Part shown: one piece after another, positions 18,001-39,000 of the stretch
Numbering within the stretch: position 1 is the first letter of the stretch
Layout of the letters: each line of letters begins with the position of its first letter
From: Octopus sinensis
Lineage: Eukaryota
Length of the DNA: 64,000 bases
NCBI RefSeq assembly: GCF_006345805.1
Contig: NC_043000.1
Coordinates: 42,160,001 to 42,224,000 of the forward strand
Reading direction: 5' to 3'
Translations under genes and position numbers: made by a program
Notes under the pieces: generated by a model
What the model was told of the DNA's origin: nothing
Databases searched by the model: none
Seen by the model: only the letters and a program-made list of their open reading frames with translations

Positions 18001-21000
18001 GATTCATACACTAATTGCAGTGATCATTTCGTAAAAGAACTTGGAAGATTGAGCCTCCAACTAGGCCTTTTGAAATATCCTTAAAGCCAGGAACTTTTCA
18101 GCACCCCCTTGCAGTGTCTCAGAATCTTGAATTAAGTTTCATGGTGCTTATACATTTATAACAGAGCCAAGACAACATGTAAAGTGGTAAGCTTGGCATC
18201 GAAATCATGGATGATATTTCATGGAAACCATACTTTTAAAAGGTTGCTAAGTCTGTTTCACATGGGCTATGGTTTTTCTTCAGCAACAAAAACTACATTA
18301 GTTCTGAATATTTTCTCATTAGGTATGACTGCAGTTTGTCCATGACTTGTTGAGTGGAACAAACTGATCCTAGTGCTATTTTAAGCTTGGTATTTATCCT
18401 ATTGTTCTTGCTGAATTGCAAAATTACAGGGATATAAATGAGCCAAAATCAGTTGTCAAGTGATGGTAGTGATAGGACTAACACAAAAACACATACATAC
18501 ACACATACATACATACATACATACATACATACATACACACAAACACACACAGATACACACAAAGGTGTGCACGCACACACTCACACACACATATATACAA
18601 TGGACTTTTACACAGTTTCCGAGTTTCTATCCATCAAATTGACTCACAAGACATTGGATGGTCAGGGCCAGAGTACTGGGACTGAATTTGAAACCATGTA
18701 GTTATGAAGTAATTTTTTTCATTGTTGAACATCAAAAGTGTTCATTAAGTGAGATTTATCTCAAGGTCTATCATATCTTTTATCTTTTACTAGTTTTAGT
18801 CATTGGACATCAGCCATGTTGGAGCACTATCTTGGTGGGTTTAGTTAAACAAAATGACTCAGTACTTGTTTCATTTTTATATCTAACTAGCATTATGACC
18901 CGTCTTTGCCGGGTCATAGTGCTAGTGCATGTATATATGTGTATATATATGTGTACATATTACATGTACATCTATATATATACATCTACACATAAAATAC
19001 AAAATACAAAGTTATATCTTGATATCGCTAATGATAACAATACTGAAAATATATAACAGACTGGAATTGTAGGACTATTCCATTTCTGCACACTAATTTT
19101 ATTTTTAATTTATTCCCATTCATGTGAAACCACTTATTCAAGTTCAAATCGTTGATGCAATTTTATACCAATTGCTATTTTTACTTTTGTTATGTTACGA
19201 TTATATTATACTTTAGTTTGATTTTAATTATTACTTATTACATATAATTCAATTGTTATTATTATTTTTATTGTTAAAGTGAAAGAATCTGACATAAAAT
19301 CGAGAAATGTTTTTGTTTCACTTTTAACACGTAATACTGAAATAGTGGAGAAGATGATATTGCTATGGGCTCGCCCTAGGCAAGAAGTTGAAAATTGGCC
19401 CATGAAACTACATGGACCCTAAGTAAGGCATGTGTAAAATTTGAATGAAATTGGTTGTGTAGTTCTCGAGTTTTAGGGAATCGTAGTGGAGAAGATATGA
19501 TATTGCTATGGGCTTGCCCTAGGCAAGAAGTTGAACATTTTTTTGCCGATGACACTCCCCGGACCCTAAGTAAGGCATGTGTAAAATTTGAATGAAATTG
19601 GTTTTGTAGTTCTCAAGTTTTAGGGAAACAGACAGACAGACAGACAGACAGACACACACACACACACACATTCTCAGTTTTATATATAGAGAGATAATTC
19701 CTATTGCCAAAAGGGTGTACAAGGGAACTAATTAAGTCCTAGTAAAATTCTGGGATCAAATAAAATTTTTCACTTTCTGCCATAACAAAAAAAAAAAAAA
19801 AAAAAGAACAGGAAGCAAAAGAAAGAAATGCTTGTCAACACAAAGAAATAATCATCTACTTACATGCAGTTGAACAAAAACAAACATATCAAGAGTATTG
19901 ATAATGTCCAGGTTCTGTGTATTTACAGATTTCTGACATACTTTACCAAAATCGATTTTTGATGGCCCTTGAAAAGCAACAACAAAACAGATTATAAATA
20001 AATAAATATGTGTGTGTGTGTGTGTATATATATATATATATATGCGGGTGGCACGTAAAAAGCACCCACTACACTCACGGAGTGGTTGGCGTTAGGAAGG
20101 GCATCCAGCTGTAGAAACATTGCCAGATAATACTGGAGCCTGGTGCAGCCTTCTGGCTTCCCAGATCCCCAGTCAAACCGTCCAACCCATGCTAGCATGG
20201 AGAACGGACGTTAAACGATGATGATGATGATGATGATGTAGCTAGTTGTAAAATATCAATAAGGGATGAGAGTAGTAACTATACTAACAAGTAAAGTTAA
20301 TTGCCACATTAAGCTGTACAATGTTACTACTAGTTTAACTCCAGGCAGATCTACTAGATGGTCATATATATATATATAGATATATATATATATCACGTGA
20401 TCACGTGACCGACCAGACCATCAGATGTTGTTACACATCGCTGGTCACAATGTGTTCGCATTGTTTTAGCCTTCGAATGACGCCACCCCACTGGCTAAGC
20501 GAGCAGGCCAACAGAAAGAGTGAGAAAAAGAGTGGTGAAAGAGTACAGCAGGGATCACCACCCCCTGCCGGAGCTTCGTGGAGCTTTTAGGTGTTTTCGC
20601 TCAATAAACACTCACAACGCCCGGTCTGGGAATCGAAAGCGTGATCCTGCGACCGCAAGTCTGCTGCCCTAACCACTGGGCCATTGCGCATATATATATA
20701 TATATATATATATATATATATATATATATATATATATATATATATATTATATATATATTATATATATATATATATATATATATATATATATATGTATATA
20801 ATATATATATATTATATATATATATATTATATATATATATCTGTTTCTGTTTTTGTTTCTCTAACGGATTTCCTTTTTTCTTCCTGAAGAGAAAGACACA
20901 ATATGGTCCCATTATTCAATCGGATTTTGGTAATTTGTGCCTTTCGAAACACGTGTAGAATGAAATAAAACGATTTCTGTTCAATCTGCGTTCAGCTCCA

Positions 21001-36000: not shown

Positions 36001-39000
36001 GCTCATCATTATCACAACTTCTGCCATCAGTGACAACAATGACAAGAACAACAAGCCATGGAGAGAGCCTCTATACAATCTTTTGATTTGCTAGGAAAGG
36101 CGACAAAATCTCCATCAAATCACAGCGATTATGCAGCAACTCTTAAAAACCTCAAGGCACTTTTAAAGGTTAGTGCTTAACTTCATCTTAATGGCCTGAA
36201 GTGAGCAAGAAGCATATTTATTCTTGGATAAGACAGCTGTGTATTTGTTGTTAACATTCCATGAATAATCTGGTCCATGGTTTTGTGAAAGTGAGACAAT
36301 GAGGAAGGAAGTGTTTTGCACTGAAATGCAATGATCTGTTATTTTTTTAAACTTCACTTCACAATCTATGAGCTGGTGGTACAGTACTTAACCTGAATGC
36401 CTTAAACATCAATGGCTATGATGTTTCTCAAATCATTCCAGACATTCTTTTAACTACAGTTGGGTTATAAAATGAGTATGTATTCCTGTCCTCCATAATG
36501 GAATATGAAACATTGTGAATGAGAAGTATCAATTATTTAAGTCAAATGAAAATATTTATTTACGGAGATGTACTTGCATAGCAAGTGACCTGATCTGAGA
36601 CGTGTGCTGGAACGAAAACAATTGCAGTGTGGAAGGTGTTTATTAGCCATTTAAGAAATACACAAAAACCGTGAGATTCACTTCAACATTTAAATTTAAT
36701 TTGTCAAAATATTTTCGTCGCTTTGAGACCGCAACCTGTTCACTGACAAAATTCCGTGCTGCATCATGTCAAAATATTTATAGTAGACTGAAGACTGTGT
36801 TATCATGCTGTTACTACTGTTGCATCTTCATCATCGCCACTGTCACCGTTGCTACCGGCATCACCACCACCAGCAACAAACCTCATCATTAGCATTTTTA
36901 TGTCTGCTTTTCCCATGCTGGCATAAATGTGATGAGACTAGTTGAAATAGTTTTCTACTGTCAGATGCACCTTCTGTTTTGTCACCAACCTTTTTCTCCA
37001 AGTAAGGTATTTTTTACTTGGTCATGAAGAACCATAGAATGGCCAAACAATTTTACAGGAGGTGTAAACACTGACATTGCCAAAAACGTTGTTGTTTTTC
37101 ACTTAAGTATATGAACAAAGTCAAGACATAGAAGAGAAGAGACAAACACAAACATGTATAAACACACACAGTATGTCATATTTTACAATGTTACACAAGA
37201 TATGGTATCTCCTCTCTCTGTCTTTTCTACAACTATTAAAACAGAGATTGTTCCTTGGAGCTGGCTGGTTTTATTTCTCTTTCATGAAAGCAATCCCAAA
37301 TCACTCAACACCAACATTGTGTCCATCTTCTACATATCCAGCACTAACTATTGTGTCCAATTCTTTTTTCTAAGAATCAGGACTCTCTGGAATTCCTTTC
37401 CATTAGACATTTTCTTTTTGCCTTTTTGTAGCGATCTTACTTGAAGCTGTTGAAGAGAAGCAGTAACTATTTTGATCCTACTAGTTTCTAAGAGCCTGAA
37501 AAGTGCACAGGCTCAGCCCCTTTCTTCAGATTTCTATTACACCTGCAAAATATTGCACATACACATGACTTTTTTTGCACATTATCATACATAATTTCTT
37601 TGCATGTGTATATTTGATTTGTTTCATCTATTTTTAAGCCACTCAATACTTATTGACAATCCAAAGGCAATATACCATCAAAGTAGGACTGAAGGTTTTC
37701 ACACTTGCTCATAAACTGATGGATTTTTTCCCCTTTAAGTTTGTGTGTGTGTGCGTGGGGAGGGGGATGAATGTGAGGAACATAGTAGTCTTTTGCTGAC
37801 AAACATGGTTGCAAATAGTTGAAAATAGCTTACATAGCTCGGCTTTGATGTATTTTCATCTTGGTGGCCTTTGATATCAAGTCCTTATACTTGCTTTTAT
37901 TGATGATTATCTGCTCTAGTTCATGCTTTGTATAGCTATAGTCTGGATCATTGTAAGTGTAACGTTTCTTCTTTGTGAACAAAGTTCTGGTTGAGATGTA
38001 AACAAAAACATGGAAGTACAAAAAGAAACAGCAAATAGAAAAAAAAGAGAAAGAGATATAAAAGGGACGTGAAAGGAAAATTGCGACAAATTATTAATGG
38101 TAAAAAGCAAGTGAAATAAAATATTTAGACACATATATCATATGATATCAGCATGTAGCATTATGAATGATCACCAAAGTCATTTGGTATTTTCATAACA
38201 GGAGGGCAAAAATGCAAGTTTTTTTTAAGAACAAATGTTGGATTAGTTGATCAGCTATTTCAAGTTGAAGCTTAACCATAGCTGTATAGGCATTACAGCC
38301 CATCTACAATTTGCAGTTGCTTGACAATGGTTCAAATACATGAATTGCAATTTACTTTGGGGCCAATCACCTTGTTTGAATTTATAAACTTCAAATGAAT
38401 GTCTTTTAAACAAATCAGTGATGCATTATTTTATGATGATAAGATTTTCTTAGTACAGGCTTTTATCTAGTTTAAAAAAGTTTTTTTGGGGATTCTGGTC
38501 AAGAATAAATGAGGATAATCACAATCATCTCCATGTAAAAGAAACTTTTATTTACATGTTTTTACTATCATAAGCAATGGCAGATCCACTGTTGTGATAT
38601 GACATCTGTTACTAAATTTGATATCGCTTTCATGCGAAAATTATTACAATATTCAATGATGCATCTGTAGGCATCAATACTTTTCAACATGTGTAGATGA
38701 ATGCAGCACTTTGCAATCAAGAGGCCCCAGGTTTCATACCTCTGCACGGTTTCATTCACTGTAGTCTTGTGTCAACTTAAGCTTTGTCAGTGAAAGGGTC
38801 TAGACGGAAACTATGCAGAATCTGTTGGATGGAGTGAACATTTATTCAAAAATTCAGTCATAATAGACTTTGTGTTACACTGTTTCTGCCAAAAGATTCT
38901 GTTAGGAATACATGAGTGTGTGGAGTACTCAGCCACTTGCACTATAATTAATTTGATGAAACAATTGCATATTCATCACTGAAACCAACAAAAATCCATT

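Follow-up and report, generated by a model that had tools for sequence, protein, structure and literature searches.

Minimal hammerhead ribozymes have been described in Penelope-like retroelements (PLEs) of metazoans, and the parts of Cervera and de la Peña 2014 (PMC4209133) covered here include a U3-A8 core in schistosome PLEs (~1,300 hits). Natural U3-A8 core variants are also reported in the covered portion of Perreault et al. 2011 (PMC3088659), and in that of Frangione et al. 2024 (PMC11167929) the engineered double mutant C3G/G8C partly restores cutting in a protein-assisted PLE hammerhead. In this study, we analyzed a 64,000-nucleotide stretch of Octopus sinensis DNA (assembly GCF_006345805.1, contig NC_043000.1, positions 42,160,001 to 42,224,000 of the forward strand; hereafter the window), which carries hammerhead motifs of five families, A to E. 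We consider it likely that these motifs are type I hammerheads situated in PLE terminal repeats or in their non-coding derivatives, and that positions 3 and 8 of the core changed jointly, probably under selection to keep a predicted self-cleaving dimer fold.

The window families resemble the minimal hammerheads of PMC4209133, as described in its covered parts, in their terminal-repeat position, the extra base between positions 9 and 10.1, the G10.1-C11.1 pair, a short palindromic stem III, a short stem I, and many solo copies. They differ in that the G3:C8 pair of family D and the A9C core of family C are missing from the text and alignment rows compared, where only CUGA and UUGA cores occur, and in that three Watson-Crick states are found here within one homologous clade. 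The compensatory logic at 3:8 is the same as in PMC3088659, where the covered text names only U3-A8. The G3:C8 of family D is the pair of the engineered C3G/G8C mutants (PMC11167929 and PMC3884650, both covered in part), but natural, fixed and with more than 1,000 exact matches in the family. In the literature searched, we found engineered G3:C8 only and neither a natural G3:C8 nor a cephalopod hammerhead; outside the scope of that search were Lunse et al. 2017, Przybilski and Hammann 2007, and the supplements of PMC3088659, of the preprint by Li et al. (bioRxiv 10.64898/2026.07.22.740005) and, in part, of PMC4209133. The covered parts of PMC6765202, PMC6155905, PMC8490949, PMC11014351, and PMC10886601 hold nothing on G3:C8.

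The window was searched with a hammerhead descriptor in which positions 3 and 8 were left free. All four cores proposed in a first-pass annotation of this DNA (20884 on the plus strand, 23666 on the minus strand, an array, and 36743 on the minus strand) were recovered, together with a fifth motif, E, at 30808 on the plus strand, which that annotation lacked and which has U3:A8. The motifs outside the array are:

20876..20965, plus strand: motif B, type I hammerhead with a canonical C3:G8 core at 20884 and a predicted cut after 20957

23628..23672, minus strand: motif C, minimal hammerhead with a C3:G8 core at 23666; family state A9C with G9a

30805..30841, plus strand: motif E, minimal hammerhead with U3:A8, G9a, a 4-nt palindromic stem III and a 3-bp stem I

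36700..36750, minus strand: motif D, minimal hammerhead with a G3:C8 core at 36743, G9a, U17 and a predicted cut after 36707

In the array, which belongs to family A, two of five hammerheads are intact (32819, minus strand; 33525, plus strand) and the other three have decayed; the motif has U3:A8, a 6-bp stem I, a 4-bp stem II and a palindromic stem III. Motif B has a long stem II (5 bp, a mismatch, and 5 further bp), a stem I of 3 bp, or of 7 bp if one mismatch is allowed, and an 8-nt palindrome as stem III, while motif D combines a 7-bp stem I and a 5-bp stem II with a 6-nt palindromic stem III. The stem III palindrome is perfect in A, B, D, and E, and only four of six positions self-pair in C. 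The G10.1-C11.1 closing pair and the stem II of PLE minimal hammerheads are present, and the published core of that class is found in B (canonical) and in A and E (U3-A8), but not in D (G3:C8) or in the main C subfamily (A9C), which were therefore classed as variants and not as plain members. An Rfam scan of the window returned 128 matches at an E value of 10 or less, none of them to a hammerhead family, not even for the canonical motif B; the matches obtained were discarded as microsatellite noise.

Genome-wide, the 3:8 pair was followed with family patterns carrying N at both positions; total counts are of exact matches and hence lower bounds, and states are those at the first 100 places listed. 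Family A (1,051 matches) has U:A in all 100, family C (2,632 matches) C:G in 94, family E (2,364 matches) U:A in 95 together with four C:A and one U:G, and family D (1,083 matches) G:C in 84, the other 16 being single changes without any double change. Unpaired combinations occur in D and E only as scattered single-copy changes, and B has C:G in 49 of 49 copies. In addition, a systematic sample of 140 evenly spaced 10-kb stretches (1.4 Mb) was searched with a stricter descriptor, resulting in 20 matches (10 C:G, three G:C, two U:A, two weak A:U, and three unpaired). Of these, 17 are Watson-Crick, compared with four of the 18 matches obtained in ten shuffles (mean 1.8), and the reversed sequence gave one match. 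Both U:A matches are arms of one insertion. With a looser first descriptor, the sample gave 21 matches versus seven in reversed sequence. A cluster count over 2.05 Mb, enriched for families A to E by design, gave ten clusters with at least two matches, nine of them with a Watson-Crick majority (five C:G, three U:A, one G:C) and the tenth a chance-looking tie; none has an unpaired majority. In the sample, unpaired 3:8 combinations are thus not as common as paired ones, and the covariation that the first-pass annotation had pointed out is real, being fixed at family level and above chance in the family counts, in the sample and in the clade alignment described below.

It had also been proposed that searches for CUGANGA miss much of the cephalopod diversity, which holds in part: five of the 15 C:G, U:A, and G:C matches of the sample lack CUGANGA, and such searches also overlook the A9C family, but five of the nine multi-match clusters with a clear majority are canonical. 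Two A:T descriptor matches have a 3-bp stem I, look like chance and were set aside, and A3:U8 was rejected as a fourth state of the clade formed by C, D, and E, as it has two genome matches only, which resemble decayed D copies. Further lineages were noted on the way, namely another U3:A8 family, several C3:G8 hammerheads behind B-related reading frames, and one C3:A8 copy that is perhaps a CpG decay; the U3:A8 family is at L230:6729-7969, and the other loci are L259:175, L169, L177, L194, L245, L246, and L303.

The elements that carry these cores had been taken to be unrelated. C, D, and E, however, share 3' sequence and belong to one clade, with a sister family F; no kinship of A or B with this clade was detected when the sequence 3' of the ribozyme was aligned. 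The shared part is represented in the window by:

36561..36612, minus strand: 3' tail motif common to C, D, E, and the sister family F

A 27-place pattern of this tail has 12,387 exact matches in the genome and none in the reversed control, and the motif also led to family F, which has a canonical core (L296, L322-L324, L329-L331). On the 3' side of the ribozyme, C, F, D, and E can be aligned with one another (z 3.5 to 27, weakest for C-D), the match of D being weak without the tail. Sixteen hand-picked copies were also aligned, the E rows being misaligned at stems I and III; positions 3 and 8 pair in 16 of 16 (nine C:G, five G:C, and two U:A), and two stem II pairs are changed on both sides. 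A rough neutral model on the clade tree puts the probability of the 3:8 pattern at ~0.002 and that of ten core sites remaining unaltered at ~1e-5; these ten sites are nearly fixed, while their flanks have accumulated 0.2-0.8 changes per site. Because C, D, and E are homologues, the covariation evidence is stronger than the comparison of unrelated elements offered earlier, and the family-fixed states, the controls and the clade covariation together make selection on a hammerhead-like core likely, as had been suggested. At locus L339 (~2100-2180), an E-type copy with U3-G8 adjoins an inverted open reading frame (ORF) fragment related to that of C; this copy could be a 3:8 intermediate or a single decay.

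The paired states might still be accidental, either as chance matches or because a few master copies drifted neutrally before being amplified. Thousands of copies from few masters do mean few independent events (U:A in three clusters, G:C in one), and the descriptor also yields a few chance-looking matches such as the A:T ones. However, the shuffled and reversed controls reach about a tenth of the matches and carry no pairing bias, unpaired states never dominate a multi-match cluster and remain scattered single-copy changes, and the neutral probability of the 3:8 pattern is low, so that this explanation is largely refuted already and appears very improbable.

The core at 23666 had been read as CUGAUG(C)A, with an inserted C. 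This inserted-C (8a) reading was ruled out by copy comparison and by genome-wide counts at position 9: CUGAUGC-G is present in 36 of 41 copies and a window-like core in only two, and the first 100 listed of the 2,632 family C matches have C9 in 85, A9 in 14, and U9 in one. In its family state, C combines A9C with the usual base at 9a and adds no new 3:8 state; the window copy is a CpG-decayed one, its 9a base having changed from G to A in a CpG-type manner. A sister copy has the canonical core. The presence of A9C in the abundant young C subfamily versus A9 in the sister subfamily possibly reflects loss of the ribozyme in an active lineage.

Judging from the sequence, each window motif belongs to a multi-copy PLE family or to a non-coding derivative of one; the first-pass annotation had not named these hosts. 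The corresponding insertions are:

20841..21174, plus strand: family B insertion, 5'-truncated 3' end (pseudo-long terminal repeat, pLTR) of a young PLE, in (TA)n

23506..23815, minus strand: family C insertion with (TA) runs on both sides; a young PLE with a Neptune/Nematis-type linker, represented by its 5'-truncated 3' end

30653..30945, plus strand: family E insertion, sense 3' end from ~30796, preceded by a tail-bearing inverted copy; boundaries approximate

32195..33463, minus strand: retrozyme-like family A array of 3.5 head-to-tail non-coding ~361-bp units, each with a hammerhead; the core at 32819 is intact

33464..34073, plus strand: family A inverted arm, ~1.6 units, intact U3:A8 core at 33525

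36561..36765, minus strand: family D, short copy of ~205 bp that starts at a 5'-end hotspot and ends with the shared 3' tail, representing the pLTR of an older C-related PLE lineage

The copies have PLE-type insertion marks, i.e., a fixed 3' end mostly at (TA)n, 5' truncation and inverted 5' copies, with an optional ~60-nt tail in families A, C, and E; the covered part of Craig et al. 2021 (PMC8557442) gives 5' truncation, inversion, tails and (TA)n targeting as the PLE insertion signature. The whole family A insertion, array and inverted arm together, is flanked by (TA)n. The best-scored genome copies are ~98-99% identical in A, B, and C and 92-98% in D and E, and the 40 scored genome candidates of family B have 99-100% identity, a fixed 3' end, and inverted 5' copies. 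In longer copies, both B and C have an ORF whose end is GIY-YIG-like, with motifs visible in the translations. For the family C ORF, 2,836 relatives were found at E values of 0.001 or less. With respect to the PLE groups described in the covered part of PMC8557442, the C ORF appears Neptune/Nematis-like (CX2-5CxxC linker, C..C/H..H pattern) and the B ORF Hydra-like (CxxC before the conserved E, no CCHH), these clade calls being made from motifs, without a reverse transcriptase (RT) tree.

Long copies of D continue through a microsatellite-rich untranslated region (UTR) and, at L260, L336, and L338, run collinearly into the end of an ORF related to that of C, with 37% identity in L260. Since longer copies lead to an ORF, D as a stand-alone ~205-bp short interspersed element (SINE) without a coding partner was ruled out. 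The hammerhead lies downstream of a putative RT-endonuclease ORF in B, C, and D and, on indirect evidence, in E (L339). Long-form D has 14 of its 41 matches on one contig, C20, and in L336 (~1050-2300) the long element is split between ORF and UTR by a transposase-like insertion that we take to be mariner-like. A TAACGG hexamer recurs near the hammerheads, upstream in B, E, L169, L177, L194, and L245 and downstream in D; it presumably resembles a Myb-type site and may belong to a promoter.

No ORF was found in family A copies, which are non-coding with 40% GC. This family has the genomic features of a non-LTR retrozyme (LTR, long terminal repeat), namely tandem non-coding units of 150-450 bp, GC below 45% and one type I hammerhead per unit, and its sequence fits that class. 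As in the non-LTR retrozymes of the covered parts of Cervera and de la Peña 2020 (PMC7229834) and Li et al. (bioRxiv 10.64898/2026.07.22.740005), units of ~361 bp with 40% GC stand in tandem, with one canonical-sized type I hammerhead in each, and the PLE-type insertion marks of family A fit the PLE origin proposed there. Unlike those retrozymes, family A has a U3:A8 core, its arrays are short, dispersed, often inverted and in (TA)n, it is known from genomic copies, and no partner PLE was identified. A diverged sister of family A is suggested by loose ends over window positions 32553-32915 in runs X1, X8, and X9.

In A, C, and D, folding predicted both stem I and stem II, and in B and E it predicted stem II only. 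Stem III within a monomer was unfavourable or marginal in every family, being too short to close in one molecule, in line with the dimer model published for PLE hammerheads, and its self-duplex energy was favourable only for A and B. In the mechanism proposed here, a promoter in the terminal repeat would start transcripts just upstream of the motif, and two motifs in a tandem transcript would swap their palindromic stem III strands. Such dimers would cut slowly, or with the element's protein, to give unit-length RNA. In family A, the released RNA would form circles, and copying that goes around a circle more than once would produce the tandem arrays, while single capped transcripts of family D, having no partner, would stay uncut and be retro-copied whole. 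With its more-than-unit tandem copies, family A would be the best candidate for cleavage and circularisation. A 392-nt contig spans the family A unit in two runs, in one of them with a back-joint, which a circle and a genomic tandem would explain equally well. Contigs from runs presumed to be RNA cover A and D; ends, strand, and level are not readable from contigs.

Several observations weigh against a selected self-cleaving fold. The clade contains just two independent 3:8 swaps, and not sixteen events, and the tree does not fix their order. The stem I prediction is poor in B and E, and self-pairing of the stem III strands is marginal in D (-0.2 kcal/mol) and E (+2.2 kcal/mol). On the coding side, Pfam gave no significant match for the ORF ends of B and C; among 12 scanned relatives of the C ORF, two had a weak RVT_1 and two a weak GIY-YIG match, all below the curated cut-off. 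Moreover, the dominant young C subfamily amplified well with A9C and a non-palindromic stem III. The 5' ends of family D point in the same direction: in a set of 46 matches outside the best-D loci, with inverted arms and two overlapping loci included, 41 start upstream of the predicted cut (25 of them 52-73 nt upstream), and in no case does the start coincide with the cut. Of 24 hotspot copies, taken mostly from best-match loci, 12 carry an additional G at a place where C stands in the long template (p 4e-4). Finally, published PLE hammerheads cut weakly or need protein, and in the lizard PLE of PMC11167929, in its covered part, the hammerhead cuts only with protein, cutting is dispensable for insertion in vitro, and no reads end at the cut.

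The extra G, which is frequent at the D hotspot (e.g., L032, L041, and L320), likely derives from reverse transcription of a cap, which would place a transcription start in the terminal repeat; alternatively, the hotspot could be a 3' splice site, which it resembles in long copies (L036, L059, and L260). Under either the start-site or the splice-site reading, D copies that start upstream of the cut and carry the extra G would have been made from uncut templates, in agreement with the lizard PLE. As D seems to be copied mostly from uncut transcripts, cutting is likely accessory and not needed for every insertion. Many E copies start ~12-15 nt upstream of the core.

These data could also mean that the fold is kept for something other than cutting, as a protein-binding, dimerisation or processing signal near the transcription start, or that it is a recent relic, with G3:C8 and A9C catalytically dead. 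The uncut and probably capped D templates, the fixation of A9C in an abundant C subfamily and the insertion of the lizard PLE independently of cutting would all suit such a role, as would the spread of Naiad PLEs without canonical hammerheads, as far as the covered literature describes them. What such a role would hardly explain is the survival of 3:8, a tertiary pairing that goes with the active conformation, through two double changes, together with ten core sites nearly fixed beside diverged flanks; the more-than-unit tandem copies of family A also fit a cleaved, circularised template. We consider a non-catalytic role unlikely and favour joint change of 3:8 under selection for the self-cleaving dimer fold. 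More tentatively, and at somewhat less than even chance, D would be an active natural G3:C8 hammerhead, the first one fixed in a genome, in a clade that passed through three 3:8 states and whose sister lineage tolerates A9C.

Elsewhere in the window, a 472-amino-acid open frame with reverse-transcriptase motifs is present at 21465-22883 (plus strand), presumably of a long interspersed element (LINE) of the RTE type. About 12 TTAGGG copies lie at 54052-54123, and several dispersed 120-230 bp repeats (window repeat families D8-D20), probably SINEs, are unrelated to the hammerheads.

Both the system in general and the U:A swap were known before; what appears to be new is a natural G3:C8 in a family with more than 1,000 exact matches, three states in one clade and an A9C lineage. 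If true, a natural G3:C8 would widen the known hammerhead sequence space and escape CUGANGA-based searches, and hammerhead descriptors should leave 3:8 free. The natural variants C:G, U:A, G:C, and A9C stand in homologous contexts and offer a matched series for testing PLE hammerhead function. With a tandem retrozyme-like family (A) next to a solo family apparently copied from uncut RNA (D), models of monomer versus dimer and of cut versus uncut templates become testable. Whether and why PLE hammerheads cut in vivo is the question that these families address.

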